Shown: positions 7,674 to 39,827 of the stretch, piece by piece | Numbering within the stretch: position 1 is the stretch's first letter | Layout of the letters: the number at the start of each line of letters is the position of its first letter | Assembly (NCBI GenBank): GCA_008632985.1 | Contig: QPGO01000063.1 | Location: 372,001 to 412,276, forward strand | Length of the DNA: 40,276 nt | From: Psammoneis japonica | Lineage: Eukaryota | Direction of reading: 5' to 3' | The notes under the pieces: model-generated | Seen by the model: the letters and a program-made list of their open reading frames with translations, nothing else | Databases searched by the model: none | Told to the model about the DNA's origin: nothing | Translations under genes and position numbers: made by a program

Positions 7674-8439
7674 AAAATTCACTGTTTGAGAATTCACAGA
7701 GATTTTTTGTCATTGATTGTCCCGTGTTTTCAAATTGTCCATTTCTGATTTGTGACAAGCACCTCCATGTAAAATGCAAGTGACAAGGCAAAACAACAAC
7801 AAACAAGAGCTTGCAGGCCCACATCATTCAATGTGAGTGTGCATTGTGAACTTGTCATGCTGCTGTTGCATGAGACAATGGCCAAATGACTGACTTGTTG
7901 CACAAGTTGGATGCCAAAAAACTCTGCAAATTTGGTGCACCACCGTGTGGAATTTCGCTGATGACCAGTCTGTCCTCTTGGAGCAAAAAAGGCCCTTCTT
8001 GCAACACTGGCAATGGTGTTCAGAGCCATGAGTCTGGCAAACAGAGGCACAACAGCACATCAGTTGATGATGGCAGAAGACAAAGAAAGAAGTGTTGGAG
8101 CATAAAAAAACTTGTCAATTTTGGAAACAAAATCAACTTTTGCAGAGACATCAAAATGCACCTGAGGCCATTCAAATCATCAAAAGTGAAGTGTTTGCAT
8201 TTCCTCTGCTGTTGCATCAACACACCAAGTCACACAACCTCTCACTCTCATCATCTCAACATGTCACACTACAACCTCTCACTCATGATCTTAACATGTC
8301 ACACACAGCTGTGCTCAGTGAAGCAGCTGCTTCTCTGCCATGTCCATGACAAAAGTGCCTGGCAGCTCTGACAAAGCAAACAAATTGGGTTTGAATCACA
8401 CAATGACTGGCTTTCAACCCAATTCAGTTAAAATGGATC

Positions 8440-11400
8440 CCAGTTGGCACAAGGACAATGGATGTGAAGTCTTGCTTTGACAGTGGCTCACCTCATGGTG
8501 GGGATCAGCCTGAGATGGAACAGCAGAGCAGGAGAGCCAATTGAGATGCTCTCAACTCTGGAGCAACTCCTGCGCTGCATCAGCACCAACTGTGGAGTGA
8601 CTGAAATGTCTTTTGGGTCCCAGATGCAGAGAAGGCACCAGGCATTGGACAAGGGAATGGTGTGGGGACCTTGAATCTGTTGTGATCAAGGAAAAAAGGA
8701 GCCAGGTTTGCATGTGCCCTGCAATGAGACAACACAGTGGAGTTTGCAGGGTTCTGTTTCATCAATGATTTCAACAGCTTACAATGCATTGGAGAGGGAG
8801 GAGATGAAGCAGTGGAGTGAGTTGTCTGCAGAGTGCAAGACACTGATGATCTTTGGGAGGCAGGCACAAGCACAACCAGCAGTGGAGTTGCACTGGACAA
8901 GAACCTGTGCTGCTGCCTGGTGGCTTTTAAGTGGAAGCAAGGCAACTGGTCCCACATGAAGCAAAAGGAATTGAATTGCAAGTTCTCTCTGTCAAGGACA
9001 TCAATGGGGACATGGGCATTTCACAAGGCAAATCAAGGCCCATGAAGCAGAGCATGCATTGGGCATCAGGCTTGCAGTTGACAGGAACAACCAGATGGAA
9101 GTGAAGCACCTCTGCCAGGTTGCTGAAGAGTGGGCCAAAAAGGCCACAACAGGACATCTCAACTGTCAGGATGTGTGGTCAAACCTGACCACCACAGCAA
9201 TGAAGACTCTTGAGCATCCGTTGCCAGCTCTGACAATCTCAAAAATTCAAGCCAAGTTCACCATGGCCCCAGTCCCAAAGAGGGGACTCCCAGAGCCAGT
9301 GTTTGCCAAAACATGACCAGAGATGTCATGTGTGACTCACCCACCTACCCAGGGCCTGTGCACAAACAACCTGTTTGCAACTGGCAAGTCCACAGCACAG
9401 ATCAGAGTCATCACAAAACACTTGCAACTGGGGACTGTCACAGGTGACCTGATCAATGCAAACCTTCAACAGCATCAGCTTGAGTTGCGACTCCTGGGGA
9501 CAGTTCTTTGACCACTGCTGCAAGGATTTCCCGCTCCTTGCAACTGAACTCATGGGTCAAGGATGTTTGGAAATTCCTGCCCAAGAACAGATGCATCTGG
9601 AAACTGACTTGCCCACCCTTGCCACACACCGTGGAATGTCAAGTTCCTGATTGAACAGCTCCACACAAAGTGGATTCAAGGGCAAGAAACTGACTTGAAT
9701 CAATCTGCATCAACTCTTCTTGCAGGTGAATGCAATCTCTGACATTGTCACAGGAAACAGGAGATGGGTGCTGCAAAACTGCTTTGATGGTGACCTGCCA
9801 ACACATGATCTGTGCCAATTGGAGTGCAACTGGCCAGTTCAAGGCAACCCTTGCACAATGATTGGAGGTGGTGGAAGAAGGAGGCCCTGGAAAGAGTTGC
9901 AGGTCCTCAGAGAACACAATGATCATTGGCCCTTTGCACAATAAATGGACAGACCAAGCAGTGCACAATTGGCCCCATTTCTTGTCCGCTGCAGATCAAC
10001 ACCAAGTCTGGGAGCAATCCCAGGATGGTGGATGGAGGTGTTGCACACTGGTGCCACAAAGTCCTGCTTGATCCAGTCAGCAAAGATGCCACTTTGGAGG
10101 TGAAATGGACAAGGCCCATGCCAAGCACAAGAGAGCAACCTGCCAGAGGAACAGACTCCACTTGACCTGCAAGAAGCAATTGACCAACTGTCTCAGACAT
10201 CAGGTGGTTGGTGGAGGATTGCAAGAATGATGATGACAGGCTGAAATTGCCAGGGCTGTGTTTGATGGGATGGCCATGGCAATCTCTGATGGCTCTTGTC
10301 AAGCAGGGAGGGGTGCATCTGCATGGACCATTTGAGGACTTTGGGGTGCCCACATGAGATCAAAGGGACAAACATGACAAGGGGCAACCCATCCAATGTG
10401 AACACACACCATGCAGAAATCAAAGGTCAACTTGCAATGTTCATGACAGTCAATGCAATTGGCCACCTCCACGGGGTTGCATGGGGCCATGTGACAATCC
10501 GTTGTGACAGCAATCAAGCATTAAAAATTTCCAACATTTTGGACTGCCATTGAAGGCCAATCACAAGCAATTTGACATTCTCTCAGCTGCTCACACCTGG
10601 GTCAAGAAATGCCTGGTAAAATGGGCAGCCATCAATGTGAAGGGGCATTTGGATGACCATGTGGCATGCAAGGACTTGGATCGTCCCTCCCAAATGAGTG
10701 TTGACATGGACACAAGAGCAAAGGAGTGCCTCTTGGAGATTGACTCCATCCCAGGGGACCAAAGAATGCAAGGCAAAATGTGGGTGCTGTGGATTGGAGA
10801 TTGAAGAGGGCAAGGTGGCATCAAACCTGACCAATGCCATCTGCCATGCTGTTGATGGGAAGAGGTTGCTCTGGCTCTGGGTCAGCAAGGGTGGGTTCTC
10901 CACACTGACTGTCAGGGAGACAGACTGGGACTCACAGGTGAAGGCATTGTCTGACTTCAAACCTTCTTGACATTGATGGGCAGCCAAACACATGTCTGGA
11001 CCATGAGGCATCAATGAGGTGTCATGTCATTGGGGAGAGTCTCTGGTGCAATCTTGCCCAAGGTGTCTGCACCCAGTGAAGGACTCCAACCAGCATGCGC
11101 TCACAAGCCAAGCAGAGAGCACTGTCAAGACGTGGCACAACTCCTTGCACAAACTCAGGGGGTGGATGCTCAAGTCAGGAACAAACCCCAAAACAGCCAA
11201 GACAATCATTCAATGTCTGTGAGAGTGGAAAGAAGGTTTGCCCATGCCACCCATTGAATCTCATGATGAAGGAATCCAAGCCATGGTGCTGGACTCACAA
11301 GACTCCATCACACTGGATGGAGGAGGATTCATCAAGGGTTGTGTTTCACTTGACAGGAGGTTCACCCAAGATGCACACTGCAGGAGGGCAAACTCCAGGA

Positions 11401-11800
11401 AACAAGGACAGCGTTGGGTGAGATCACTGACTGCCAAAGCACATGACATGTCCTGGGATCAGCAGGAACGTCAAAATGGCATCGCCCATCATCCTGCTGC
11501 TGCAATGATCACAGAAGCACAGGTCAAAAAAGCAAAAGAGAGGGTCTGCTGCAAGTTTGCTCTGGGTCCCCAACAACTGCTGCCAATGGACAAGCATTTG
11601 TTTGATGCTGCACTCAATGAGCTGCTTTGGAGCACACTTGAGTGCTTGAGAGCATGGCTTGACAATGTGGGCACAGCAAGAGATGCTCGCCGTCGACAGC
11701 AAGGTGAAAGCAACAATGCTGCAAGTGGCTGGGAATTCATGCTGTGCTGGCTGCGAGGTGCGAACACTGACATTTGATGGTGGGCGATGCCAAGGCTGTT
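8440..11800 (+). mobile_element. Decayed, 5'-truncated non-LTR retrotransposon with RT, RNase H and C-terminal Cys motif (diatom Ambal-like)
   Basis: RT remnants DVKSCFD (~8462), GIGQGNGVG (~8641), FCFIND for FVDD (~8750) and thumb region GIRLAVDRNN...KTLEHPLPALT. RNase H remnants HAEIKG, IRCDS, NVKGHLDD. CPRC...H knuckle at ~11054. Many stops and frameshifts; boundaries approximate. Confidence 0.8.
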
Positions 11801-14699: not shown

Positions 14700-17600
14700 C
14701 ATGGAGGAGCCAAGTCTGAAGTCTCAGGGAGAGCAAGTCTGGGACAGTCAGAAGAGAGCCTTGCATTGTGTGCCCATAATTTTAAAAGAACAGCAGATTT
14801 TAAAAGATGCCCTTAGCACAGAGGCCACAGGAGCCATCAAACATGGCATCAAACCTTCCCAAACAAGAATGTGTGTTTTGTCACTCGAGAGATCAACAAG
14901 GAGGGATTTGGGAATGACCTCACAGACCTTGCAACAGCCCATCAATCACTTCCTTTGTCATTCTGCAACCTGCCACATGAACCACTCAGAGTGCAAAATT
15001 CCATCAAATTTCCAATTGGTGCAATTTTCCAACATTGGCTCAAACACAAAAGAAGTGCTTTTCTCTTTGTCACGACCTCGTTGTTGGCTGCCACCCCAGC
15101 CTCCTTTCCAGCCAGCCACTCCTTTTTTGCCATGAATCTCTTGGCAAGGTTTTGGAGTTTTCAACCATTGCAACAATTTTCAGAAATTTTTTGGCACCAA
15201 AAATTCCCACTCTGGCTGCCTCAAGAGCCACCTGTCCCAGGGGGTCGAAGCCAGATTCAGAACATCCAGGGGACCTGGGTGCACCTCCAAAACTTGCACT
15301 GGGTGCATCAACAAAACCATGCATGATGGAACAAATGCCAGTGAAAAGACCATGAAGAGCCATCACACCAGGGGCAGAAGATGGAAGATCACAAAAAGAA
15401 AGGGGTCTGAGGGCATCGATGTCGCACTTGAGTTTCTGAGCAAGGGGGGGGGGGGACTTTGTTGGGCAAGAAGCACTTCCAGGATCATGTGCAGTTGTCA
15501 TGGGCAGGTTCGGGGAGACAAGTGGGGTCATGCCAGCAGCATTTGACAATTTTGAGTGCCCGCCAGCACTGGGGGAGGGGCTCAAAGACCGAAAAGTGGC
15601 CAGCCCCAATTGATGGATGTCTGAGATGGAGAGTGTGCTCCCTTGTGTCAGACAGACTGGCTCATGTGGGCTGGAGTGATCCAATGATGATCTCTCCTTT
15701 CTCACTTTCTCTCAGCTCTGGTGCATGGCTGCATCTGTCCCAGACATCAACAGATCCTCATCCCAACACCAGCAGATTGCAAGATTGCTTGTGAGCAGCA
15801 GTTGTGTGCTGTTTGCATTTCTTGACACAAGCACGCTCCCCCTTGACATGTTGTCATCATGACCACCACAGAACACACGCCAGTGCTCTGCACAAGAATT
15901 TGATTTTTGTTCTTCCCATAAAACCATGGTCAACAAGAATGCAAACACAGCCAATGAGACTGAGATCAAGCCAATGCTGGTTAAACCCAACCCACACAAT
16001 CACTCACCTGATGCCCATCAACACCTGAGTGCCCTTCACTCTGATGAGACACAACTGTTCCTGAAGATCTTCTGGACTGATTTGCTCTTCCTCCAAGCCT
16101 CAAGAGCAATGCTGTTGCATGTGTCCATCATGAGATCATTCAGGGTCTTGTCATTCTCTGAGCTGTGCCAGCTGAGGATCTCACAAGGATTGGGCTGGTC
16201 ATGGACAGTGCTCCTCTTTTTGTGGTGGCTGCCCCATTTAAGTTCTCCAATTCATCTGAACCATGCCCATCTTTAGAAGGCCAAGATGCAGGCTGTCTTG
16301 CAGGATTGGGATGCTGTGACAACACATGTTGAGACCCTCTGTCTCCACTTTTGTCCTGGTTTTGAGTGTCGTGACCATTGGAAGAACACACATCAGATGG
16401 TCCATGCCCCAAGTCCTCTCATTCTTGGAGTTCTTCATCTCAACTGGCTGCCAGTTTAGATCCTGCTCCTGGAGATTTTGTGCCAAGGTTTCAGCTGCCC
16501 ATTTGCCTGGCCCAAAAGAGTGTGGGCAAACTGTGGCCAATGCATTGGAGAGTGCTCCACCACCTCCCAAAAATGCTGCCTCAACCACACCTCCATCTGC
16601 TGTCCTGTGTGCCTTCAACCCCAAAAGACTTCCTTTGGATGTGTTGACTCACTGCCAATGCAACGAAGACAGCAAGATGATTTTGGGAAAGTTTTTGGCT
16701 CCCTGCAAGCCATGCAACTGCTTGTGTTGTGTGAAGATGGTGATGACTCTTCTTTTTTGTTGCACAATGAGTGGGATGCCAAGTCTTTGCTGTGGGATCC
16801 CCATGCTTGCAATTGCACTTCTCTGCAAGGAATGTTTGCATGTGGTGCATTGCTGTGACCCAGCAGGCATGGCTTGTGGCATCCACATGTGTGCATGTTT
16901 CATCAAAGATGGAGACAATTGTGATGATTTTCACTTTGAATGTGAGGGCCTCTTGCACAGATGAAGCTGACTTTTTGACAGCACACTCAGAATGTTGGGG
17001 GCCATGCTTCTGACTGTGTTGGTGTCAACAACAAACCTGTTGGATTGCTGTCTGTGATCACTTTTCTTGTGCAGTCCATGGTGTTGCACGGGTTTCCAAG
17101 GCCAGTCCTCTCAAATGGCTTTGCTGATTTTTGGATCAACATTGGCCACATTGCTGTGACAAACACATGTTTGTGGATCAGGTGAGAATCATGCACACAA
17201 AAGTCCAAAAGTTTGTGACCTTTCTTGTCAAGAATTCCACTGTGACTTGTGCCCTTCTGGTGTTGGCACATCCAGTCAATGTGGGCCTTTTTAATGCTCA
17301 CATTTGACTGTTGAAAATGTGGTTTGTGCACTTTTGATTGTGTTGCCAACCTTCCAATTCAATTCTGGACCTTTGTTCTGTCACTGCCTGTGAACCAACA
17401 ATGCCACTCCATCAAAAGATCAAGATGCTTCTCCTTGCTGTTGCTGCTGGCAAGGTTGAGGATGCAGCTGCATCAAGGTCATTTGGATGTTGCACATGGG
17501 CAAAGCAGCCATCCAACTGACCTGTTCAATTCACAACAAACTCCAAGAAGGGTGTCTTCTGTGGTTGTCCTTCTAATGCCTTGAATGACATGCTCTGGTG

Positions 17601-19200
17601 GGATCTAGAGATTGACAAGGTCAAGACAGCCAATCAAGTGCAATGTGATGAGGCCATGTTGTAGTTGTGGCATCGCGTTTACATTTTCAGATGGGAGCTG
17701 GTGTCGTGTGGAGAACATTCTTCACACGAAATGAAATTCCTGCCATGGAAAGGGATGCACAACTTCTGACCAAATGGTTTCGCGCAACAGATGATGCAAG
17801 TGTTTTCGGAATGTGCTCAGCACGGCCATGCAACACAGCCTGAATGAAACTGTCTGCCCTCATGATGTTGACATGTTGTGACTGTTCACAGCATTCCGTT
17901 TCATGATGAAGACAATGTGGATCACTCTTCCTGTGCCACACACAAACACTGCATTGTTTGTTGGCAGAGTTTGCCATTACACTCCCGGGTTGGGACACAG
18001 AAAAAAATTGCTGCTGGGGTTCTTTGTCGATCATTCATGCCAAGGCTGATGGTTGTCAGCACAGAAGATTGGAGTGTCCAGGACAAGGATCAGATGTCAT
18101 TGAGTTTGAAGGAAGATGGCTCTTTTTTTCAGTGACAACAAGCAACCACCAGTGAAGGGAGTGCAGGAGGAACCAGAACTCTAGAACATGGGGGAGCAGG
18201 AAGCTTGGGTTCGGCAGATCAACCAGCATGTTCAGAGTGCCAACTTTTTCACTGTGGAGTTGCTCACTTTGAACAACAAATGTGCAAATGTTTTTAAGCA
18301 GGGTTTTCCTTGGGTTGAAACTGCACACACATTGGAGCAGAAACAAAATGAGTCCACAACCACCTCTGCAGGTGTGTCAAAAAATCTGTGAACTCACATT
18401 TTTGCCACCCTCATGTCATGCCTCAGTGATGCACCTGTGCAAATTTACAGAGCTGACCTTTTTTGTCAGCCCCTTCATGGAGAGCACCAGTTGTTGAACA
18501 TTTCACCACAGTCAGTGTCACTTGTGGTGCAGGAGCCCCAAGGTGATTGCCAGAAAGTTGTGTCAGGCACGGCGGGCAGGAAAAACTTTGGGGCAAATCA
18601 AGCAGGGTTGGCAGCCACCATTCACTGCACTGCTCCACACCACAAAAATTTCATCACAACCTGTGGGGACAGCAAAGAATGGGGCAGAAATCCATGGTCT
18701 CCATTCTGGCCCAACAGGGAGGAGCAACCAGAGCCAACAACACCCTTGATCAACATGGGCCCACAGCTTTTCCACAAGCAAGTCCCAGTCATGCCAACAG
18801 ATTTGCTCCACCCATTTGGGGACAATGCATGGAGTGGGGGACAAAGTGCAGAACAACGGGGCACCATCCTTTGCTTCCTTGTGCCTTGTGCCAAAGCAGG
18901 GAGGCATCATTTCCAAAATGTCTGACTTTCATCTGCCAGTTCCCACCAAGAAGCCTGCACAATCCAGGGAAAGACATTGTTCAAAGTGGTTGAGAAGTTG
19001 CCAGAAAATGTTGCAAGCTGTGAAGGACAGATTTCTTTGAATGACCCAGCAGAAATTGTGGCCAAATGACTTTCCTGTGTGGCATTTTCCAACTCAGCAC
19101 CAGTGCCCCCAACTGCCCACAGGGAGAGGTGTCAATTGTGGCCTTGTCTGCCTCAGTTGCTGTCAGCACATCACTTGCGCTGCTTGGCTCCCAAAGCCAA
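14700..19200. other. Heavily mutated repeat-derived block of unidentified origin
   Basis: Nearly devoid of TpA and CpG, with many short overlapping ORFs and no motif I can assign confidently. Confidence 0.5.
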
Positions 19201-19209
19201 CTAAAATGA

Positions 19210-19246
19210 TGTTTCCTGAATGTGCATTTTGGTCAGACCAAATTGC
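19210..19246 (+). repeat. Solo fragment of the TIR of the 176-531 MITE family
   Basis: TGTTTCCTGAATGTGCATTTTGGTCAGACCAAATTG matches 179-214, with its CpG sites decayed. Confidence 0.8.
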
Positions 19247-19369
19247 CAAGCTCAAGTGTGAGCCTTGCTTGCTGCATTTCTCCACTTGTTTGTCTCCTTT
19301 TGTGCTCCTTGGCACTGCGCCTCCCTCAACTTGTGGTGGCACCGACAATGCCTCAGCACCCCAGCAGGC

Positions 19370-27199: not shown

Positions 27200-27560
27200 G
27201 TGAGTTCACAGCACATGACAAAACAAACAGCAAACAGCAGCAAGCTGGGTTCTTCACAAAGACAATGCAAGAGACTGCCAACTGTGAAGGACAACTCTTT
27301 GACTCAGAGTGACTGCATCAAGGCAACAACTCTTGATCAACTCAAGGAAGTTGATTTCAATGGAGAAAGACCCACTGCAGCAGCAAGAGACACCAATGGA
27401 AATGCAAACAAAAACAACCACCAAGTGGCTGATGAATGTGGGCAAAGAAAAATCAAGAGTTGTGCGAGATTGAGGAAAAAGCACCAACAAAACAGGAAGA
27501 AAGCATGCGCACATTGACATGGAGCCAATGCAGTGATGCCATGAGAGGATCAGCAGCAGA
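27200..27560 (+). pseudogene. Copia gag fragment
   Basis: TLTWSQCSDAMR resembles the (Y)xLIWGQCSxAM motif of CoDi gag proteins. Confidence 0.5.
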
Positions 27561-28815: not shown

Positions 28816-29008
28816 ATCAGGCAAAATGAACACAAGATCGGTGAAAGGAAAAATGTGATGAGAGGAGACAAGCGAGGTTAGCTGGCAGTTGAGCAGCCGT
28901 CGATTTTGTCACCCATCAGAGTGCTGCACTGTGTTTTCCAGCGGGAGATTTTTGGTTTCATGAATCCAAACCCAGGAGAGTCGGCAGATTGCAGTTGTTC
29001 CAACATGA
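28816..29008 (+). repeat. Diverged ~190-bp direct repeat, copy 2
   Basis: Similar to 26845-27022. Confidence 0.7.
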
Positions 29009-29331
29009 ACATTCTCCGTTTACACAGCACTGAGCACACTCACAAAGCTGCATCAGACAAACATCAGGTGCTGAGCTGGATGTGGAATTGAAACGAACAC
29101 TTCACCATCTTCTGCTTGACTTCTTGGACTGCGACAAACGCACCGCGCGAGGGCGGCACGTGAAATGACGCAACGACGACAAACGAAAACCGCATGCACG
29201 TTCGGTTCGTTTACTGTAGGCCCTATTAGTTTGCAGCAGTGAGAAGAGTGTCAATACAATCCTGAACGCAACATCGCTGCTACTGCTTGAGAGCTGGTCT
29301 CATTAGGCTACATCTTTTCTTGTGACAGTGG

Positions 29332-30244
29332 ATGCGGGGATATTCTTTCATTAGCTACGCTGCGTTTATCCCCAATCACACTAAATCAAGAATGATTGAT
29401 TCGCATGAGGTCGTCGTGCCCATAAATGCGGTGGTGCCTTCTCGTGAGAATAATGACTTAGTGTTGTCATCTCCCACACAAGGTCCATACGATTTATTGA
29501 AACCAGACTTGGCGATTGTTTCCAAATCATCCATCGTGTCTCCTCGTGAACCGCTTCGATTTGAATTTCAGGGATATTCCGTATGGTTGGAGTTGGAACA
29601 GATTGATTCAGATCTTGATCACGCACTTGAGGCCGCTGCACTTGATCATGGACTCGTGCCCATTCCATCTCCGCATGTGACGGTGCATTATGGAATATCG
29701 CATCTTTCAGAGACGGAGGCTCGTCGGCGGTTTCGGGAACAGCTCGACATTTCCTCGTGGCCGCCGCTGAAACCGAAGGGCGTGCTTTCGGATATTAGTT
29801 TTGACGGTGTGGATGGAGAAGAAATGGTAGGAACGCTTGCTAATGATGTGGAGCTTTTTATAATTCTGTGCTTACATCTTCATTTCTCATTGATGTTGTT
29901 GACTTTCGCATTCACTGCTGCTTTTTCTTTGTTCTTTGCAGGACATGGCTTGGTTAGAGGTGACGCTCAAGACCACTCAGCAACACGAGTCACTCTTGCA
30001 AAAAGTACGAAACGTGTTTTTTGCAAAGGACGATGAGCTCAAGCCGCCCTCTGGCCCATGGCTTCCGCACTTATCCTTGGCCTATGACAATCCCAAAGAC
30101 TCTCCGCTTAGTTTGCCGGCTGCCATGGGACTGGCGGCCCGCTTTCCTACGCTCTTGACGGAACGCAGAGTCGTGGGCATTGCGCTCTGGAGCAATTACG
30201 GGAAGATTCAAGAGTGGAAGTGTTTGGACCGAATCGATTTATGA
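29332..30244 (+). CDS. 2H phosphoesterase (cyclic nucleotide phosphodiesterase, CPDase-like), two exons 29332-29826 and 29942-30244
   Basis: YSVWL, PHVT and PHLS (paired HxT/S motifs). A phase-0 GT...AG intron at 29827-29941 joins the two ORFs in frame. The start could be 29392 instead. Confidence 0.88.
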
Positions 30245-30404
30245 CGCGAGGAAAACGCAGAGTTTCTCTTGTATTGCATTTGATTTATAATTTTCATACC
30301 TTTGTCAAGCACAACATTGTTCTCGTCACACAACGAATGGTACACCGTAACAGAGAGGGTAGATCAAAACGTCATATTGCTACCAGCCATTTCAAAAGCC
30401 ACGT

Positions 30405-31461
30405 CTACGTAAGATCGACATCGTCATCATCCACACCTCCGTCCTCGTCTTCAATCGACCTCTTCACCTTGACAAGCATGGATGTTTTCCACGGATCGAG
30501 TTTGGAAATTCGATCAAACTCGAAACAAGCCGTTGCAAACCCTTCACTGTCAAATCCCTCCACAGCCTCAATCAGCTGCACACAAAACTTGCCTTCACGA
30601 GACTCTCCAAAGGTATAATCCAGACTTTCATAACGAGAAACACATTGAGATGCAGCAATCGCGTCATTGTTGGCCAAGTGACAAAAGATGGCCTGCAGGA
30701 AGAACCCCTTGGCATTGTACTTTAACAAATTGTTATCCAAACAACGACGTCCCAAACCATCATAAATTTGCGCCGCACGCATCAAATCGGGAGGATCCAG
30801 CGCCGCCGAGCACAACTCGGCCACCTTGGCCAAGCACTGCGACGAGGCGCTGCTGGAATTCTCCATGCCATAGAGCTCGGCGGCTTGTTCGTACGATTCA
30901 ATCGCACAAACAATGCTGCTCTTTCCGTCGGAACCGGTAACGTCTTCTTTTTCAAACAACTCGGCGCATTCTTTCGACAGCTTGGCGGCTTGCAGCAAGC
31001 GACCGGCGTCCACCAACAAGGACACGGACGATTGGTATGCCGAAAGTGCTTCGCTGGGACTGCTCTTTTTGTAACAACCTCCTGGTGATATTGAATAGAA
31101 TAATTGCAATAATATTAGAAATCGACAGTATGTTTGAATAACAAAATTCAATTGAACACAACAGCAACATCATCTTCCTTTCATACTACTACTCACCCGC
31201 ATTGGATAGGCACTTGCTCGCTTCATTCAAATTCTTGAGCTTATCACGATACAGTTCTGCCGCCTTGACGTAGGCGTTTCCGGCTTCGTGGTGAAAGCCA
31301 CCCACCTTGAAGGCGTTGGCGGCCTTTTCGTACAGCTCCGCCGCGTCCTCGTATTTTCGTTCCTTGCTTGATGCCAACCACGTGGATTTACCAAGAGTCT
31401 TTTCGGCATCAGCCAAAAAGGCATCGCCCTTGGCCTTTTGTTGTTTGCCAATCAAGGACAT
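30405..31461 (-). CDS. SEC17: Alpha-soluble NSF attachment protein (alpha-SNAP/Sec17), exons 31461-31197 and 31081-30405
   Basis: KYEDAAELYEKAANAFK, NNLLKYNAKGFF, FGESREGKF, FDRISKLDPWKTSML and C-terminal DLT. Intron GTGAGT...CAG at 31196-31082 keeps the frame. Confidence 0.95.
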
Positions 31462-32510
31462 GGCGTGACCAAGGGGTAGGTGGGAGTGTCGGAGTGTTTC
31501 GGGCGGGGAAATGCCCACTCGAAATCTCAAAGGCATCATTATTTCATTCAATGCGAAGCACGCGATTGCGATTGTCGCGCAGAGGCTCACGGTGGAGTGT
31601 GCATTCCCTTTTCTCGTGACTGTAGATCTATGTTCATGCAACCATGAATGATTTCGACGCAATGGACAGCTTGACGAGTTTCATTTTTGGTATGCCAGTA
31701 GAAATTCAATATGTTTCTACATTCGACAGTTTCTCATACATGCGTACGAAAATCACGAACTCTGCGAGCTCCAACACGAGAATAACACGAAGCACGAAGA
31801 GGCATCGACAGAGCTAATGGCGTTGCTAATACACTGTGAATGCTGAGTGAAAATGCCAACACGTTATTGTCACATAGCATATAGATGATTGGTCTATCAA
31901 CAGACAAAATAAATCGCCTTCAAAGCTGGTCAGCAGCTTCAATGGACTGCACAGCTGTTTGCGTGTTGTCAGGTCGTCTGCGTCGCCCACTTTGAATCAT
32001 TCTCAGATCACAACCACAGCCAACTCCTCCACCAATGTTGCTGATATCTTCTCTATCAAGTTATTGTTCAATTCCACCAATGTTCTCTGCAGTAGAAGAG
32101 CAAATGACAAGACTTCCAGCTCGCCCAACAAGATGACAATGCCGCCGACTTGACAACGCTCCAGCATTTCTATTTCAGTCATAGATTTGTCATGTGACTG
32201 GTTAACATCCACAACCAGTGATCGTTTCAGAAGCATTGCTTGTTTGTGCCCACAAAGCAGAGCCATCTAAACTGCTGCTGCATGGAGAAAAGGACAACAA
32301 AGCAACCACTCGCAGTTCCTGCCACAGAGAGCAACATTTTCAGAGACAGCCCTCCTTGGGATCAGGCTAAATTCACTGTCATGCCACCAATTTAAGCTCT
32401 TCTCAGTTATCCATGCCGGTTGTGTTTGCCACAACACTGCTCAAGTAACTTCCAATGGGGCCAACGCGTCATTTGCTTTTCTTGCATCCACAGAAACACA
32501 TTCAAGGTGA

Positions 32511-32846
32511 GTCCTCCTTGGGCTCCAGCTAACTCCACCGTCATGCCACCACATTGGGAACTGCTGAGTGTTCCATACCGCATGCTAACGTCATAAAATA
32601 CCTCTAAAGATACTTCAAATAGGGCCAATACATCGTCACAATTCCAACACCGACCATTGCACGTCGCACCGGTGCGTCATGTTGACAAGTCCTCCTTGGG
32701 CTCCAGCCAACTCCACCGTCATGCCACCACATTGGGAACGGCTGAGTCTTCCATACCGCATGCTAACGTCATAACACCGCTAAAGATACTTCAAATAGGG
32801 CCAATGCATCGTCACAATTCCAACACCGACCATTGTACATACGTCG
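32511..32846. repeat. Tandem repeat, two ~178-bp units, plus a diverged partial unit at ~32351-32396
   Basis: GTCCTCCTTGGGCTCCAGC(T/C)AACTCCACCGTCATGCCACCACATTGGGAAC starts at 32511 and 32689. Confidence 0.9.
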
Positions 32847-34500
32847 TGTTGATGGGTCCAACGGCGTCTTTTCATGGCGAAACAAAACCCCTGCAACTCT
32901 GTCACGACCGGTCATTTTATTGAACCAATTGTCAGCAATGTTCTAAAACTCCGTGGTAAGGGAGATGTGATGTGGCAAGATAGCGTCAGAGTACAAACAA
33001 CGCCGTCGTATCATCACCATTGTGAGTGCGGCATGCACGGGTAGGTCGCCGTACAAATTTGAATGAGCTGATGGGTCCAACTGCCATTTCAGTACAAACT
33101 AACGTAGAAACTTGCATGCACAGATCTACACAACTTTGCACTGGCACACCAAAAATGAACTCGGCAAGCTGTCCATGTTTTCGATCACTTTTCTGGAGCT
33201 CTGCTCCTCTCACATTTTCTAGAAACACTCTTTTGTGCAAGGCGTTGCCATTCACTGGCTTGTCACAGCTTGTCTTTCCTGTCCAAAAGAGAGTTGTTCA
33301 CCCCCCGCCCCCAGCTGCTTTCACAGGCAAGACCTTCTTTTCTCTCTTTTTTTTTTGTCAGTCATGGGCAGCGCTGGTGAGTGCATGGTTTCAATTGATG
33401 TGCTGTTTTTGCACTTTCTTGAAAAAGCTCACCAGTTCTTCATTGTCTGTTTGTTGTGCCACAGGGCAACATGGCACCAACAACTGCATCATGTTGAGAG
33501 GTGTCTCCAGCAATGCTGCCTTCTTGGCAGGAGCACGAGTGCAGCACAGCTGCAGTTTGTCAAACACTGTGTGGCTCTGAGCTGAACATTCTTGACCTTG
33601 GTGCATGGATGACATTGCAGTTGTTTTTTTAAAAAAAGAAGACCATCATGGCAATTGCACATCCACAGACACTTTCACCAATGCCACCATGAAAGCTTGA
33701 AAAAAATTGCAGCAGTGCTCCTCCTCTTGTTTTTCAAAAAATGCAAGGATTCGAGAGGGCTGAGGATGGGTGAGTGCAAACAGTCAATGAATGACAAGTC
33801 CCATGACATGAATTGGCAAGTTCAAACATGAGAGGCACTGGCATGCTAGAGCCAATGTTGTCAGTCCACACTTGACCACACCGTTGCTTGGCTTCTCCAA
33901 CTTTTGCCGCAAGGGCAATGGAGCTGTCAATCTGATCTCAATTTGCCTGAGTTCAAGCAACAACTCAACCTCAATGAGCTTGCATTCAAGTGTGGATTCT
34001 TGCCCAAACAGAGACCAACTTATCCTGAATCCAACGGCTTAGATGGGCAAGCATTCAAACAACACTGCTGATGTTTTTGCAGGCAAGAAGTGAGCCCCCT
34101 TGCTTTGAGGCTTTTCAATGCTCAACGAACTTTGAAACAAGAGGCAATCAAAAAACAGAGATGAGGTCTGAAATTAAAGAGTTTGCTTTTGCAGTTCATC
34201 AACTGTAAAATGCTTTTAGCCAGCACAAGAAAAGTGAAGTTGTGACAGCACAAAGAGTGGCAGGCCAGTTGACTCACAACTTTGCCATGCAAGAGACTGA
34301 TCCAAACATGAAGAGGATTAAACATTGCTTTGTCTGCTTCTTGCACCAGGCATGGTGCCCAAACCAAGGTAAAACTGCAGCTGCATGTGCATCAGCCCAC
34401 AAGAAGCCCCAGAGGCACACTTGTGTCTGGCTGGATCAGAGTTGCTGTCACTTTTGTTGTTTCCATTCACAATGGCCACACAAAACTGGCCAAACAAGGT

Positions 34501-36375
34501 TTAGTCTGCACTTGACAGTTTTTTCTCCAAGATGTGCAATGCAAAATGAGCTGTTGAAAACTTGGTCCAGGCAAGAAATGGCCTCCTGGTGACAAATGTG
34601 GGAATTGGCACTGGAGGAGGAAGTGCAAATGGGGCCACTTTCATTTTCTTTCCTTCCCACAAATCATCTCTGCCTTCTGTCTTTGGGAATGAAACTTGCA
34701 CTGCAGCTCCCATGCTGAAAAGGCAGTTACATCCTGCACCAAGCTCTGCTTTAAAACCAGAGCCAATGACAACTTGTGCTTTGAGATGTGCAGTTAATTT
34801 TGCAGTGAAATCGAAGGTGAGAGTTCCGAGTTTGGTGCCATTTGGGGTGGTCATTGGAACCTCCTCACTTTCTTCTAAATCAAGAATGTTGAATGGAAAT
34901 TCCTTTTCCAACTCTGCCTTTGCCAGCGCTTTGCTCTTCACAAAACATTCCTTGACAAGCTGTCCGCAAAAGTTGTGGAGGTTCTCACGAGCATTGTCAT
35001 GGAATGCATCGACTTGGGAATCAACACACAGCATTTCAAAGATGAACATTGGTGAACTGTCCACAGCAAGGGTGCACTGATCCACAGAATTGACACATCC
35101 AACTTTCGTGATGAAGGGCCTGCCATCCTTGAGAGTGCCAACAATCACGTTGTCTGCTTCTGCATTCAGATCAAGAATGTTGAGACCCATCACCGCAAGA
35201 TTGTAGACAGTGGTTCTGCTGGGTGAGGCATTTTTGGTGAAATCACTGGCAGTTTCATTCCTTGTGTCAAATTCAAAGTCTTGACCTTCATCGTGATGGT
35301 GTTGTCAACAACCCTGAAGACTTCCCGCACAAAAACCAAGGAAGAGTTGAAGGTCTTCACAATGACCCCATCTTTCAATTTTGGACCAATTGGAGAAATG
35401 ACTGCAGTTGCCTGTTTGTTGTTAGAAAGGAAGAATTTGCCAACAGTTGCTGCAACAAGAGCAGTGCACTCAACATCTTCTGGCAGATTGCGGAATGAAA
35501 TGCTGGTCACATTTGTTGCAGCATTGGCCAAAGAAATGTTGATGGGAGAGGGGACAACTTCTACACCACGTTCAAGAAAATGTGATGAATGACTTCTTGC
35601 CATCTCTCCCTCATGCATCTTGCAGCTCCTTCACAAATGTCACTGACAAACATCAGTTCTTTCCAAGCCACATCCAGCTGCTTGCAGAAGGTGGAACAAG
35701 CCGACTCAAGACTGAGAAAAATCACATCGACATCCATGCATGCCTTGTGTGGCTTTGGACCACCTTTCTTGCCACCTTTTCTGGTCGACAACTTCTTTCC
35801 TTGCTTTTTGTCAGAAGATTGTGTTCCTTTTTTCCTTTCTTTGGACCACCTTTCTTGCCGCCTTTTCCGGTTGACGACTTCTGTCCTTGCTTTTTGCTGG
35901 TGGATTTTGTTCCTTTTTCTGCTTTCTTCTTGCTGGTGGATGATTTAACGCTGGTGCTGGATCTCCCTCCCCTCCCCATCAAACTCCACAGCCTCATCCC
36001 TCCCAATTGTGTCTCAGGTCTGTGGCTGCTCTGATGGTTGGAGCAGCCATGACCACAAAGTCTTCCCTGATCACCTTGATTCTCCTAACTCCAAGCAGGT
36101 TCATTGCTTTTGGAATCGGTTTCATGCTTGATGCCAGGATCAGTGCCATTTCGAGTCTACAAGAAAGGGTCAAAAAGCATGTGTCAGAGTTGGCAGAGCA
36201 AGTTCATTTGTCAGAGAGCAGCCGCAGCATGTTCTTTGCCATCACACTTGTGAATTCTGCACACGCAGATTTGGAAAAGAACATCATGGGGCATTGGTCA
36301 CCAGGCCCTCAAAGAACATCACAAAAACTTTCATTCTCTTTGTTGATCAAGGACAGCACAGCAATTGTTGAATGA
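34501..36375 (-). pseudogene. Fossil of an unidentified protein-coding gene with a Lys-rich repeated linker
   Basis: Abutting, protein-like, Tyr-free minus-strand ORFs 35190-35618 and 34501-35193, preceded by a duplicated STxKGGKKGGPK segment (35755-35880). Boundaries approximate. Confidence 0.5.
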
Positions 36376-36916
36376 CAAACACAAAGCACTGACTTTCTGT
36401 GACACAAAAAACAAAATTGTGAGAATGTGCAGATCTTTTGATTTTGTGGGCCAGTGGAGGAGTCTTGTTGATCAGTTGACTTCAAAATTCAAAAAGCGCT
36501 CATCGGGAAAAAAGGAGTGCAGCATCAAATTTATGTGCTGTCATTTTCAAAAGCCTTTGATCAACACGAAGAAGCACCAGACCATGATTAGATTTCAAAA
36601 AGTGCTTGTTTTAGAAATGGATGCACAGCATCAAATTTAAGAGCTGCTTTTTGATGAACTTACAAATCAAGATTTTTTGGCAGAAAGATGACAGTTGACA
36701 ATTCAAAAAGTGTTTGCTTGCCAAGTGATGACATGTTCATTAATTGTGCAGCCACTGCACATGCTGCACTGTGTGACAGACAGCACATCGTCATCATGTG
36801 CTGCACCGGCAGGGCTCTGGAAGTGCTGTGCAGTGTGCACAACACATCATGCACACAGCATGTGTGATCATGGCATCCATCATTCCACCGCAGAAACAAG
36901 AGGCATCACACGCCAT

Positions 36917-36935
36917 GTGTGTGTGTGTGTGTGTG
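36917..36935. repeat. (GT)n microsatellite
   Basis: Run of about nine GT units. Confidence 0.85.
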
Positions 36936-37282
36936 CAGACACACATCATGTGCCCACCCTGCCCGTCCATCTGCCACCCATCCTTCGCCCACCGTCCGCA
37001 CCACAATCGCTCATCGCCATGGGATTTTCTGTCACAATGTTCTCGTTGACTCACAAATTAATTGCGTTGATCATTTCAACACTGTGCACTCTTGATGATG
37101 GTCTGTGTGCCATTTTTGCCATGCTGAACAAAGAAGCTCATGGGAAAGGGGGAGCTCATCTGGCAAGCTCCTGAGCAACAAAAACAAGGAAGAGTGTTGA
37201 GAAATTTCAAATGTGACAAAGAAGATCTCAGGGGGGGGGGGGGAGAGAAAGGGAGATGTGATGAGGTGTGACAAGCAGCCAA

Positions 37283-37700
37283 TCAATTGATGAGGAAACG
37301 CACTTTCTTGGGTGTGTGCACAAACTTGTGTGCACAAACTTGAGTCATTTGGCATTCTCTTTGGCACTCTCTTTGTGCACTGTGGGTGCTTGTGGGAGAG
37401 ACACATGGACAGTCAAATTGTTTCTGCCCTGGTTGGCAACTGGCAGGCACTTGAGTTTGAGTGCCTGCACACCTGGGAGTGCACTCATCTCTGGAGTGTG
37501 CACATTCAACCACTGCCCATGGTTCTGGTGGGTGACTCGGTTCACCTCAGTCTTTGTTGCCTTGGCCCACTCTTCAGCATCTGAACCTTTCACAGCACTG
37601 TGAAAAGAGAGCATGTGCCAGTGTTCTTTTGCTCTTCTGCTTGGTCATGGTGCAGGCTCCAGGCTCCAGGGTCTACAACACCACAGGCAGCACTTGAGTG
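37283..37700 (-). pseudogene. Probable copia fragment at the start of the RT domain
   Basis: VVDPG..., SAVKGSDAEEWAKATKTEVNR and CAHKFVHTPKKVRF resemble the pre-RT and RT N-terminal motifs of copia elements. Confidence 0.45.
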
Positions 37701-39827
37701 ACAAAAAGGCAGGCTGGCTGCACACCTTGTCCAGATGGGGCCTGGTCCTCTTCCACTCAGCACATTTGGCACATCAAAGTTGACCCTTGCTTGGCAGACC
37801 CTTTGAATGCACACTTGGAGGTGTTTCAACCAGAGAGAGAGAGAGAGCTGCAGGTTCAGGAGGTGCTTCAGGGGGCACGGGGGGCAGGAAATTGTTGTCT
37901 TCCCTCACAGGTGTGACTCAACTCATTGCATCTTGGAGTTGTTGGTCCTCTGCAAGCAGCACCAAATATTGCAGCTTGAAGTTTTGATGAACACACACTT
38001 CTCTGCTGGCTGCCTCTTTTTTTGTGCCTTCTGAAGGTGCTCTAGAGGAGCAAGCCACTCACCTTGCAGATGCACTGTTTGACCCTTCTTGAGTGGTGTG
38101 TGGGTCAACTGCTCAAGATGCAGTTGCTTCAAGTGACCAAGTGGATCCATGAAGCAGCAGTGAAAAGACTGTAAAAATCACATGATGCTGAGCAGCACAG
38201 CAACTCCAGTTTGAAAATTGAGGACTTGCAGAACTTTGCTTGATTGGGGGGCTGCCGTCACCAAGGTGACTTCTTGTCTGAAGGAAGAGCTGGGTTGAGA
38301 ACACAAGCTGGACATCTCCACATGTGAGCATTTCTCAAATGTTGGCAAGGCACTGGGCTGGGCTGGAGCCAGCAAAAATGTCTGCTTGGCAATGTCTGAT
38401 GGAGTTGGAAGTGACACCACAGATGTGCTCAGCAGCAAAAGAAACAGCTGTGAGCCATGATGAACTGTCAACTCCCCCCCCCCCCCCCCTTTTCAACAGA
38501 GTGATGTGTGTGATTGAGCACTGCTCTTCTCATGTTAAAGATTGGTCAAATCCTTCATTTGGCAAGAACTTCATTCTGATGACAAGTGTTGCCAGCACCA
38601 CAAAGCCCATGTTGTGGCTCACGCCCGTTCATGGGCATGCCTGAACAAATGAGTTGTCTTTGAACACGCTGCTGTTGGCAAGAAACTTTTGAGCAGCCAC
38701 CATGGTCTGGAGCATGCCTTTCAAATGCATGCTTTGCTTGCACATGGTCTCCACAAATGAAAAGTCAAATTGGTGCTCAGCCTGAACACACCCTCTGAGA
38801 TGTGGTTGACAAAGGCCTGTCCTCCCCTGAATTGCTTGGATGTGGCTTTCCCATGGGAGTCGCAGGCCCAGGAGACAAAATTCAAAGTTGTCAATGCTGA
38901 AAGCTTGACCCATTTGCAAATCTCTTGTTGATCTCAGAGAGATTGCTTGACTGAGTCAGCGCCCGAGCCTCTGAGGGTGACAATGCTGTGGTGCAAAACA
39001 GCATGTGCTGGTTTTTTTCTGGCCATCTGTCAATGCAAATGCAACAAGTCTGGTGGACTTTGCCTTGAAGAGGAGCCATTGGCAACAACTGACTCTTCAG
39101 TTCTGTGGACTTAAGTGTGATCTCCAAGCCTTCCATCAACTTCTTGGGGTCTGGCACCACAGTGCCACCAGTCTCAAGTGAGCTTGAACTCGGCATGGCT
39201 TGGTCTCTTAAGTGTGAAGACAGGAAGGGCAAAAGTGGAATCATCTGCTTTCCTGGGTTTGCTTCAGAGAAAATGTCTGCGGTGATGAACTTGGCAAGGA
39301 GCTTGACACCAGTGCACAAACTGGGCAGAATGGCCAATGGAGAGACAACACAGAGCTTGACACACAAGCTCCAGAGCTCTCTGAGGTTGGTTGCAATAGA
39401 AGTGCGCACAAAGGTAAACAGTTGTTTGTTCAAAGTGTTGTTTTCTAGAGAGCATGGCAAGGTCGTTGCGATTTGCAAAAAGCGATTTGAACAATGAGTG
39501 TCGATGAGTCTGGGTCGTCGTGATGAGCAGCGATCAAATAATGACGTTGAATCGTGACTCGACTACTCTGAGTTCGCTGACAGTTTCATGGTGAAGGCAC
39601 GATGCGACGGGCACAGGGATCTGCGAATGAAGACATGTGAATTGTGTAACTAGACATTATAGAAATGGACATGCTGCAGTAAGATGGCCGTTGACTCAGA
39701 GTCGGGAGACAGCACTCTAGGTGACCTAACGTCCTCCAGCAACAAATGACCGAATTTATGAGTCCATAGAACATCCCTTTCGAGATTCAGAACTGAAGCG
39801 CAACCGAGATTTGCTTCTTATGGCACT

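Follow-up and report, generated by a model that had tools for sequence, protein, structure and literature searches.

Features and domains of the window

The window, a 40,276-nucleotide stretch of the Psammoneis japonica genome, was split into domains by TA and CG counts per 300-nt bin. Positions 1-6900 are poor in TpA with normal CpG; 7801-11700, 14701-21300, 23701-29100 and 33301-39300 (21,900 nt, hereafter the old blocks) are depleted of both. Observed/expected (o/e) ratios in the old blocks are 0.06 for TA, 0.13 for CG, 1.85 for TG and 1.77 for CA, against 0.53 for TA and 0.97 for CG in the normal blocks (6901-7700, 11851-14700, 21301-23400, 29101-33300 and 39301-40276); borders were set by TA and CG density, which makes this comparison circular as regards TpA level, though not as regards the context in which TpA stands. 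The features are:

1..574, resuming at 7685 to about 8100, no strand: older high-copy repeat hosting the Copia insertion, defined by contig joints
569..756, minus strand: Copia 3' LTR, TpA-mutated copy, gapless 188-nt alignment to 7486-7673 at 90% identity
757..7039, minus strand: body of the Copia LTR retrotransposon, RVT_2 match in ORF 1909-4509, TpA depleted, CpG normal
1309..1699, no strand: stretch within Copia without polyprotein homologue (alignment gap), in the highest contig depth bin
7040..7684, minus strand: Copia 5' leader and 5' LTR (LTR 7486-7684), TpA density normal
7801..11700, no strand: depleted block 1, TpA and CpG nearly absent, single-copy at a likeness of at least 80%
8641..11789, plus strand: degenerate LINE-like (non-LTR) retrotransposon within block 1, spanning some of the reverse transcriptase and the C-terminal domain
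14701..21300, no strand: depleted block 2, defined by TA/CG counts, origin not assigned
23401..29100, no strand: depleted block 3, TpA lost from 23401 on, CpG dropping only after about 24000
23667..24573, plus strand: three tandem units of about 292 nt each, within block 3
29101..33300, no strand: gene-like control block, TpA and CpG normal, containing the alpha-SNAP ORF
30405-31151, minus strand: alpha-SNAP ORF, Pfam SNAP match (E 2.6e-67)
33301..39300, no strand: depleted block 4, defined by TA/CG counts, ORF Pfam scan giving no origin

The high-copy Copia element aligns in collinear order, from 5380 to 911, with a 1370-aa homologue, and its body has o/e ratios of about 0.15 for TpA and 0.71 for CpG. 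Summed contig depth across it runs from 6,000 to 54,000, compared with about 60 for unique DNA. An empty-site contig links 574 to 7685, and further joints in the surrounding repeat connect 573 to 7772, 162 to 7968 and 86 to 7844; other copies of that repeat have CG or TA where the window has TG or CA. The homologue alignment skips from 1700 to 1308. A small high-copy element probably inserted here later, since the skipped stretch lies inside the highest-depth bin (1335-2001, 53,927) and holds eight TpA, those at 1460-1613 being without homologue cover. At the other end of the element, TA counts per 300 nt are 18, 25 and 11 in the 5' leader and LTR and 0-1 just below, with a sharp edge near 7040. 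Given this normal TpA density, the leader and 5' LTR escaped mutation.

The LINE-like element was recognized from ORF 11223-11777, which has 275 relatives (best E 1.9e-17) and matches the C-termini of long proteins; its layout is collinear by tblastn. Among the six relatives longer than 800 aa that were scanned, three contain RVT_1, one of these with Exo_endo_phos and another with RNase_H. No Pfam domain was found in stop-to-stop ORFs of block 2. The alpha-SNAP ORF has raphid pennate diatoms as its best named relatives. Between the tandem units of block 3 there are TG-versus-CA double differences where unit 1 retains CpG.

Directional, context-dependent TpA loss confined to particular domains and copies

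Among 18 differences in 188 nt between the two Copia LTRs, 11 of the 12 TpA in the 5' copy (7486-7673) have become TG (8) or CA (3) in the 3' copy. A reading of this DNA from sequence alone had placed 8 of 12 LTR changes at TAY; eight do lie on the TAY strand, of a total of 11 rather than 12. It correctly gave the two TpA of the 3' LTR as CTAG (647) and TTAA (716). In the polyprotein, only 2 of 29 conserved Tyr columns are kept, compared with 535 of 611 other conserved columns (537 of 640 overall; p=5e-21); the Tyr codons became His (CAY, 15), Cys (TGY, 9) or Arg (CGT, 1). Lys, Asn and Glu codons are kept at 26/28, 15/18 and 35/37. From 30 related elements to the window's Copia, TA per kb falls from 45.2 to 7.8 as TG rises from 77.3 to 101.6, CA from 66.1 to 76.5 and CG from 51.7 to 54.5, although both stand-ins for the ancestral composition, host gene blocks and relatives of about 55% identity, are crude. 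Copies of the family differ by transitions at 1,217 places and by transversions at 209. As a control, 43 TpA are common to two paralogous normal segments of 92.6% identity, and in neither copy was a one-sided loss of TA to TG or CA found.

Several other sources of the pattern were considered. TpA poverty as a trait of the Copia family is ruled out by 80 metagenome relatives, none with a TA o/e below 0.46, and by 119 homologous proteins, none with more than two His or Cys at the 29 Tyr columns. An assembly artefact is ruled out by a single 4,714-nt contig of k-mer depth 60.9 that reproduces depleted block 1, matching 8119-12830 with six letter differences and two gaps. A polymerase-eta WA signature, named in the sequence-only reading as a competing mechanism, is rejected because AA is not depleted (AA/TT o/e 1.18 in depleted and 1.14 in normal blocks).

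TpA loss is separable from CpG loss. The Copia body has lost TpA with little change in CpG, and the LINE-like element is without TpA to its 3' end, with CpG back from about 11400 (TA 0 and CG 6 in the 300 nt at 11401-11700). TpA loss tracks element borders rather than the CpG-poor domain. Within the LINE-like element, none of three conserved Tyr columns is kept (His, Cys and Leu), and 4 of 11 conserved Arg columns have changed to stop (TGA), His, Gln or Trp.

The TpA sites that remain are strongly biased in context. In the depleted blocks, 87 are left, of which 54 are YTAR (TTAA 26, CTAG 10, CTAA/TTAG 18), 31 mixed (GTAA/TTAC 12, CTAC/GTAG 9, ATAA/TTAT 10, ATAG/CTAT 0) and 2 RTAY (GTAC 1, ATAT 1, ATAC/GTAT 0). 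The 423 TpA in 10,926 nt of normal blocks comprise 76 YTAR, 216 mixed and 131 RTAY. The odds ratio between depleted and normal blocks is thus 7.5 for YTAR against the rest (p=9.0e-16) and 0.05 for RTAY (p=3.0e-10; both Fisher). The claims from sequence alone that survivors are mostly YTAR and that GTAC, ATAT, GTAT and ATAC are essentially gone hold, as do all 11 CTAG positions listed there. Nor does composition account for the YTAR enrichment: a first-order Markov model built on the dinucleotides of the depleted blocks themselves predicts 27.1 YTAR, 42.9 mixed and 17.0 RTAY (p=4.3e-10), and in normal blocks the same test shows a bias in the opposite direction. The CpG-normal Copia (575-6900) is shifted in the same way: it retains 51 TpA, of which 24 are YTAR, 24 mixed and 3 RTAY (p=1.2e-5 and 5.1e-5). 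CpG survivors have no comparable R/Y bias (p=0.25). Our data support control of TpA loss by flanking context.

We fitted a per-strand model in which the loss exponent depends on the base 3' of A. The exponents are T 2.75, C 1.81, G 0.92 and A 0.24 in the old blocks, and T 2.63, C 1.24, G -0.05 and A 0.54 in Copia measured against the 30 related elements, an order of TAT > TAC >> TAG, TAA. Likelihood-ratio tests against context-free loss give p=1.9e-25 and 1.5e-5, respectively. The model is nevertheless incomplete, with significant residual deviance (p=0.0003): an A at +2, present in 58% of survivors and 26% of sites in normal blocks, is also protective and yields resistant TYTARA sites.

Candidate mechanisms

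The nearly complete loss of TA and the YTAR survivors point to mobile elements being the target of a context-dependent mutation process that has not been described; we found no literature report of TpA-specific loss of this kind. It is probable that transposon-derived DNA in P. japonica undergoes TpA-specific transition hypermutation, TA becoming TG or CA (A:T to G:C), in a process distinct from CpG decay and faster. Its rate is set by the flanking bases: loss is almost complete at RTAY, affects most one-sided sites and is least at YTAR, in the per-strand order T > C >> G, A by the base after A. The extra protection by A two bases downstream makes TYTARA sites such as TTTAAA and TCTAGA the typical survivors. 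An enzyme would modify one base of the T:A pair. The process would be targeted to mobile elements and would act on duplex DNA after integration, given that both strands are changed within one LTR. Adenine deamination to hypoxanthine is a tentative candidate for the chemistry and thymine modification an improbable one; the remainder may belong to editing coupled to reverse transcription or to something not yet imagined.

A TadA/ADAT-like adenine deaminase acting on single strands of element DNA, with a preference for 5'-TA(C/T)-3', is possible but somewhat doubtful. YTAR sites would survive such an enzyme because both adenines precede a purine. T at -1 is obligatory for loss (AA, CA and GA are undepleted), the order T > C >> G, A recurs in two independent data sets, and U-A-C is the natural TadA context. 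Where an LTR site is TAY on one strand and TAR on the other, the TAY strand changed in 7 of 8 cases (p=0.07). However, conserved Copia Tyr codons after a pyrimidine, where the sense strand is TAY and the antisense strand TAR, split into 7 Cys and 7 His, and pooling both sets leaves the TAY strand changed at only 14 of 22 one-sided sites (p=0.29). TAY-strand products are not favoured among Copia tetramer gains either. TAT is more affected than TAC, unlike the TadA site, the residual deviance and the unmodelled +2 A effect weigh against it, and we know of no natural eukaryotic DNA adenine deaminase. The proposal from sequence alone that TAY is the target is thus supported in part, by the loss order, the LTR pair and the YTGY/RCAR excess in the old blocks, whereas the pooled strand choice, residual deviance and the +2 A effect do not bear it out.

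The survivors might instead be newly made. C>T change at Y-C-A, for example by deamination of methylated CAG/CTG or by a YC-preferring cytosine deaminase, could supply YTA/TAR sites while TpA loss itself was context-free. Strict YC>YT change is calculated to give about 50% YTAR, 50% mixed and 0% RTAY, and 62%, 36% and 2% are observed. Opposite the CTAG of the mutated LTR the unmutated copy reads CCAG, 8 of the 10 CTAG sites in the old blocks read CTAGAG (chance 2.7e-6) within non-homologous flanks, and the absolute density of TTAAAA is raised there (14 in 21.9 kb versus 2 in 10.9 kb of normal DNA). Against this, most surviving TpA in the recently mutated Copia lie in codons that agree with conserved residues, and survival there, measured against related elements, is 0 of about 40 expected RTAY and 9 of about 16 YTAR. 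The 7 of 8 TAY-strand changes in the LTR also argue against it, as does the excess of YTGY/RCAR over RTGR/YCAY in old blocks (1455:1097 versus 465:430, p=0.0098). We regard creation as the main source of the bias as doubtful. New TpA creation may partly account for the context effect. Variant contigs have TG or CA against TA at the YTAR sites 7731, 8009, 15545 and 15659.

Thymine could be the modified base. Since T>C at RTA is exactly what A>G at TAY looks like on the opposite strand, adenine cannot be demonstrated as the target from sequence, and thymine modification fits every count equally well and is in this respect an equal rival to a TadA-like effector. A JBP/TET-type dioxygenase or another T-modifying enzyme would mark the T of R-T-A in silenced elements, and T>C would follow by mispairing or repair. 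5-formyluracil mispairs with G, and in telomere repeats base J is found at TpA. Another SAR alga, a dinoflagellate, offers a precedent: there 5hmU is reported to take the place of thymine preferentially in TA and TC, and to be enriched on transposable elements, which it silences (PMC11572971). In the window, TC is undepleted (o/e 0.99), which argues against such an enzyme. Base J sites are Y-T-A rather than R-T-A, and to our knowledge neither 5hmU nor base J is known in diatoms. We consider this reading unlikely.

Deamination of RNA or first-strand cDNA during reverse transcription, akin to the action of APOBEC3 or ADAR on retroelements, would mean that copies were born mutated and that CpG decayed later in place. 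Both identifiable elements, Copia and LINE-like, are retroelements; TpA loss ends at the LINE 3' end and CpG loss about 400 nt earlier, and the young Copia lacks TpA yet keeps CpG. Its 5' LTR and leader were spared; when retroviruses replicate, these regions have the least exposure as single-stranded cDNA. T>C is weakly in excess on the sense strand (23 versus 12 over Tyr columns and LTR, p=0.09). However, both strands changed in one LTR (8 and 3) and at Tyr codons (15 and 9), and the sense strand gained more TG than CA (+24.3 versus +10.4 per kb), the reverse of what the Tyr codons show. Edits made in U3 at the RNA level would reach both LTRs, yet the LTRs differ; survival of TAG and TAA contradicts the ADAR preference for UAG, and the edge near 7040 is abrupt and ungraded. 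Coupled editing is improbable as the source. The retroelement nature of both elements, the match of TpA loss to element borders rather than to the CpG-poor domain, the spared 5' LTR and leader and the sharp edge also sit uneasily with action after integration.

Comparison with known systems

CpG decay by 5-methylcytosine deamination accounts for the second depletion of the old blocks (CG to TG/CA, with Arg becoming stop, His, Gln or Trp). It shows no R/Y context bias, cannot remove TpA and is absent from the TpA-poor Copia. The polymerase-eta signature of somatic hypermutation shares A:T to G:C change and a hot TA context with the present pattern, but AA should change too, and here AA/TT and the Lys, Asn and Glu codons of Copia are preserved.

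Hyper-editing of retroelement RNA by ADAR and mRNA editing by fungal ADAT2/3 have in common with our pattern an A>G outcome and a 5' U/T preference. They favour UAG, whereas here TAG and TAA survive and TAT and TAC are lost; RNA editing is also one-stranded and could not make two LTRs differ. TadA and TadA-derived base editors take T/U at -1 and a pyrimidine at +1 (U-A-C), and the engineered form makes A>G changes on DNA, all of which resembles the present context. Unlike here, the natural substrate is a tRNA loop and DNA activity is a laboratory product; in the window TAT is affected at least as much as TAC, a +2 A is protective, and the effector is only putative.

Dinoflagellate 5hmU, made by TET/JBP enzymes, shares modification of the TpA thymine and enrichment on mobile elements, which it silences, in an alga of the SAR lineage; TpC is targeted there as well but is undepleted here, and the excerpt of that study does not mention TpA loss (PMC11572971).

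Fungal RIP resembles the present process in several respects: repeats and mobile elements become saturated with transitions at a preferred dinucleotide, the affected domains end sharply, and coding capacity is lost without indels. RIP makes C>T changes, CpA to TpA in Neurospora, so that TpA is gained and GC falls; in the window TpA is lost and A:T pairs are converted to G:C. Many diatoms have DNMT4, related to RID, and an excerpt of one study gives it no known function in diatoms (PMC9998398). APOBEC3 editing of cDNA likewise leaves hypermutated retroelement copies fixed in the genome, has a dinucleotide preference and can spare the 5' end. However, cytosine deamination by APOBEC3 is confined to the minus strand (sense G>A), whereas in the window A:T pairs are changed on both strands.

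TpA-depleted domains and the contexts that survive

Domain borders were drawn from TA and CG counts in 300-nt bins together with dinucleotide observed/expected (o/e) ratios, and these partition the window sharply. Four depleted blocks (7801-11700, 14701-21300, 23701-29100 and 33301-39300; 21.9 kb in total) have o/e values of 0.06 for TA, 0.13 for CG, 1.85 for TG and 1.77 for CA; gene-like blocks (10.9 kb), our controls, have 0.53 for TA and 0.97 for CG, and positions 1-6900 have 0.15 and 0.71. Among dinucleotides ending in A, only TA is depleted in the four blocks (AA 1.18, CA 1.81, GA 1.01, TA 0.06). By its pattern, the loss of CpG in these old blocks is methyl-cytosine decay of the ordinary kind. 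Its extent is not that of TpA loss: 11400-11790 and 23401-24000 have almost no TpA and near-normal CpG (11401-11700, in the last ~400 nt of a LINE-like element, TA 0, CG 6; 23401-24000, at the left edge of the third block, TA 2, CG 13).

TAA and TAG stops disappear along with TpA, which leaves long false open-reading frames (ORFs); in the ~22 kb of depleted DNA, 128 stop-to-stop frames reach 80 aa or more, a trap for gene callers. Pfam searches of these 128 frames returned no credible domain, and tblastn of 120 Copia homologues against the remainder of the window gave no match past 7700. Normal DNA carries the following features:

30405-31151, minus strand: alpha-SNAP ORF; raphid pennate diatoms (Fistulifera, Mayamaea, Nitzschia) supply its best named relatives
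32307-32838: tandem array of three diverged units, each ~165-178 nt, downstream of the SNAP gene within the gene-like block, with normal TpA and CpG
13097-14585 and 21413-22866: segmental duplication whose copies share 92.6% identity across 1,453 aligned nt, with the second depleted block between them

In the duplication lies a long minus-strand ORF, 446 aa in one copy and 324 aa in the other, that matches nothing in Pfam. As a control, these normal paralogous segments have 43 TpA in common, and one-sided TA>TG/CA loss is absent between them.

A sequence-only reading had claimed that surviving TpA sites are mostly YTAR, and this observation is confirmed. All 11 CTAG positions in its list are present, and 54 of the 87 TpA in the four blocks are YTAR (TTAA 26, CTAG 10, CTAA/TTAG 18). 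RTAY, which it described as essentially gone, accounts for 2 survivors (GTAC 1, ATAT 1, ATAC/GTAT 0), and the other 31 sites are one-sided, reading TAY on one strand and TAR on the other. In normal blocks the 423 TpA divide into 76 YTAR, 216 one-sided and 131 RTAY sites (Fisher tests of depleted against normal blocks: YTAR p=9.0e-16, RTAY p=3.0e-10). Correcting for the blocks' own composition with a first-order Markov model leaves the excess intact (YTAR 54 vs 27.1 expected, RTAY 2 vs 17.0, p=4.3e-10); normal DNA under the same correction has the opposite bias. A CpG-normal Copia element shows the same shift, with 24 YTAR, 24 one-sided and 3 RTAY among 51 TpA. The check that the reading had set against itself, equal mutation of AA contexts as in a WA-type signature, does not refute it, AA/TT o/e being 1.18 in depleted and 1.14 in normal blocks. 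The YTAR bias is far beyond chance.

The hexamer CTAGAG is found on one strand at 8 of the 10 CTAG sites of the old blocks (chance ~2.7e-6), in flanks that are not homologous:

17605, 18181, 19674, 20559, 24912, 26012, 33846, 38042 (also 39445): CTAG sites bearing CTAGAG

At 38042 the sequence CTCTAGAG is palindromic. The recurrence of CTAGAG may reflect either an extended protected context or the product of C>T at TCCAG.

There are hints of another source of the survivor bias, namely C>T changes at Y-C-A that give rise to new TpA; alone, these would yield ~50% YTAR and no RTAY. A CTAG in the mutated Copia long terminal repeat (LTR) stands opposite CCAG in the unmutated one; at 7731, 15545, 15659 and 8009, all YTAR contexts, variants have TG or CA in place of TA; and TTAAAA is enriched in absolute density. 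As the main cause, however, such creation is opposed by Copia itself, in which most survivors lie in codons matching conserved residues and RTAY stands at 0 against ~40 expected.

Reality of TpA loss in mobile elements

TpA loss is a real mutation process. At 575-7684 on the minus strand lies an LTR retrotransposon with the features of the Copia type: an RVT_2 match (E 1.2e-10), a collinear polyprotein layout from 5380 to 911 with 120 homologous polyproteins (identity up to 61%), paired LTRs (569-756 and 7486-7673), and an empty-site contig that joins 574 to 7685. The window agrees with the homologues in 537 of 640 conserved columns. Just 2 of 29 conserved Tyr columns are kept, the others having become His (CAY, 15), Cys (TGY, 9), Arg (CGT, 1) or something else (2), compared with 535 of 611 non-Tyr columns (p=5e-21). 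Over a 2.3-kb coding span, the counts per kb shift between 30 related elements and the window from 45.2 to 7.8 for TA, 51.7 to 54.5 for CG, 77.3 to 101.6 for TG and 66.1 to 76.5 for CA; TpA loss is thus offset by gains of TG and CA, and CpG is untouched. The LTRs themselves record the same change: at the 12 TpA of the 5' LTR, the 3' LTR is altered in 11 (TG 8, CA 3), out of 18 differences in 188 nt.

The first depleted block is a decayed LINE-like retroelement. None of its three conserved Tyr columns is kept (His, Cys, Leu), and 4 of 11 conserved Arg columns now hold a TGA stop, His, Gln or Trp. Copia is present in high copy; the first block is single copy at a likeness of at least 80%.

Within Copia, the stretch 1309-1699 falls outside every homologous polyprotein and lies in the bin of greatest summed contig depth (53,927); its core, 1590-1640, is rich in TpA. 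Probably a small, very abundant element inserted here later and escaped mutation.

We considered two explanations that would remove the need for a mutation process. TpA poverty as a trait of the Copia family was rejected: among 80 related loci from metagenomes none falls below a TA o/e of 0.46, and 0 of 119 homologues have more than two His/Cys at the Tyr columns, both sets being skewed to intact elements and one of the two search patterns having contained a Tyr/Phe position. An assembly or base-calling artefact from modified bases was also rejected, on a 4,714-nt contig of k-mer depth 60.9 (library type unrecorded, sample possibly the assembly's own) that matches 8119-12830 with 6 other letters. 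The sequencing comparison covers three runs of one sample and 1,448 variant places, 40 of them listed. The number of allelic and paralogous TA vs TG/CA differences is within neutral expectation.

Context rule, target base and timing

A Poisson model that assigns each strand an independent loss exponent, set by the base 3' of A, describes which sites were lost. The exponents are 2.75 for T, 1.81 for C, 0.92 for G and 0.24 for A in the old blocks, with normal blocks as ancestral proxy, and 2.63, 1.24, -0.05 and 0.54 in Copia, with the 30 relatives as proxy (likelihood-ratio against context-free loss, p=1.9e-25 and p=1.5e-5, respectively). Per strand, TAG and TAA survive best, and TAT is lost at least as much as TAC. 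A is found at +2 on 58% of survivor strands vs 26% in normal DNA, with C, G and T equally rare, and the resistant site is therefore T-Y-T-A-R-A (TTTAAA, TCTAGA). This +2 effect and the residual deviance (p=0.0003; CTAG 10 vs 3.7, CTAA/TTAG 18 vs 31) make the per-strand model incomplete.

The TAY preference proposed in the earlier reading thus stands for site survival, and extends to +2. Strand choice at one-sided sites tests a single-strand TAY reader directly, and there the support is weaker. In the LTR pair, 7 of 8 one-sided sites changed on the TAY strand (p=0.07); Tyr codons gave 7 Cys vs 7 His after a pyrimidine and 2 Cys vs 8 His after a purine (Fisher p=0.21); LTR sites and pyrimidine-preceded Tyr codons combined put 14 of 22 changes on the TAY strand (p=0.29). 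The old blocks hold TAY-strand products in excess (YTGY/RCAR 1455 vs RTGR/YCAY 1097; normal DNA 465 vs 430; p=0.0098), and CpG survivors have no R/Y bias (p=0.25). Tetramer mass balance between Copia and its relatives is too noisy to inform strand choice. The data are matched about equally well by a reader of duplex R-T-A-Y that goes on to change either strand and by a single-strand TAY reader with a strand bias.

Since A>G at T-A-Y and T>C at R-T-A are complementary, sequence is compatible with either base as the target. An adenine deaminase acting on DNA, for which the earlier reading had proposed a TadA/ADAT-like enzyme, is a plausible candidate by analogy with TadA, whose context is U-A-C (UACG). 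A T lies immediately 5' of the putative target A, as in that enzyme class, given that TA alone is depleted among NA dinucleotides. Set beside the TadA-type C at +1 and G at +2, a pyrimidine is favoured at +1, T at least as strongly as C, and at +2 only A protects; TACG is unscorable where CpG has been lost. No deaminase domain was found among the window ORFs scanned. Thymine modification, which for a TET/JBP system would mean modified T at element TpA and a dioxygenase, is also plausible, by analogy with a dinoflagellate in which 5hmU takes the place of T mainly in TA and TC, lies on transposable elements and silences them (PMC11572971). By dinucleotide o/e, however, TC is not depleted in the depleted blocks.

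We moderately favour action in place on duplex DNA, targeted to elements. This reading is supported because both strands changed, within one LTR (8 + 3) and at Tyr codons (15 + 9), and because RNA edits are unable to make two LTRs differ. Adjacent double differences, TG in one copy or haplotype and CA in the other, occur at 343-344, at 11087-11088 and in columns 56-57, 71-72, 166-167 and 170-171 of alignment A1; the ancestor must have had TA or CG there, and each copy resolved it independently once duplicated or diverged. Among the tandem units and variant contigs, such doubles require that TA or CG was still present as an intermediate when duplication had taken place, which likewise supports action in place. 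Alternatively, editing could be coupled to reverse transcription: the two elements that can be identified are both retroelements, TpA loss, unlike CpG loss, follows element borders, and the 5' LTR and leader (7040-7684) are spared. That segment keeps normal TpA density, the rest of Copia including the 3' LTR being depleted, and its sharp edge falls within ~150 nt (6909-7047).

Significance and relation to known systems

The underlying phenomenon looks new; TpA-specific hypermutation in diatoms was absent from the literature that we searched. To our knowledge, targeted hypermutation of mobile DNA is known solely as cytosine deamination (RIP, APOBEC) or as adenosine editing at the RNA level. It is quite possible, if somewhat short of probable, that diatoms, or at least this lineage, have a genome-defence pathway in which A:T pairs at mobile-element TpA are rewritten chemically, a mirror of fungal RIP, by a natural DNA adenine deaminase or thymine-modifying enzyme that reads duplex R-T-A-Y. 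The outcome would be heritable A:T->G:C hypermutation, putting elements out of action sooner than decay of methylated CpG does. If so, a TpA-specific A:T->G:C process at the DNA level would add a new chemistry to genome defence, would explain the odd dinucleotide landscapes of diatom genomes, and could point to a natural enzyme that edits adenine or modifies thymine on DNA. Element dating and annotation would also be biased by the disappearance of Tyr codons and of TAA/TAG stops, with long false ORFs in their wake. The context rule (RTAY lost, TYTARA spared) offers a concrete assay for candidate enzymes.

The pattern differs from that of polymerase eta at WA, since AA/TT is not depleted and AAR and AAY codons are kept. 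ADAR favours a 3' G neighbour (UAG) and acts on the transcribed strand only; here, TAG and TAA are the top survivors and both strands changed. APOBEC3 acts on minus-strand cDNA only, in contrast to changes on both strands in the LTR (8 + 3) and at Tyr columns (15 His + 9 Cys). Fungal RIP acts on duplicated sequence before meiosis and requires a RID-type DNMT; it converts C:G to T:A, raising TpA and lowering CpA/TpG, the reverse of the values here (TA o/e 0.06, TG 1.85, CA 1.77), and its direction is contradicted also by the change of Tyr TAY to CAY or TGY. Many diatoms have a RID-related methyltransferase, DNMT4, described as of unknown function (PMC9998398). Cytosine deamination, which defines both RIP and APOBEC, and the single-strandedness that also defines APOBEC are features that this process does not share with them, but it resembles both in effect, since mobile elements are killed by transitions that are context-specific and saturating.
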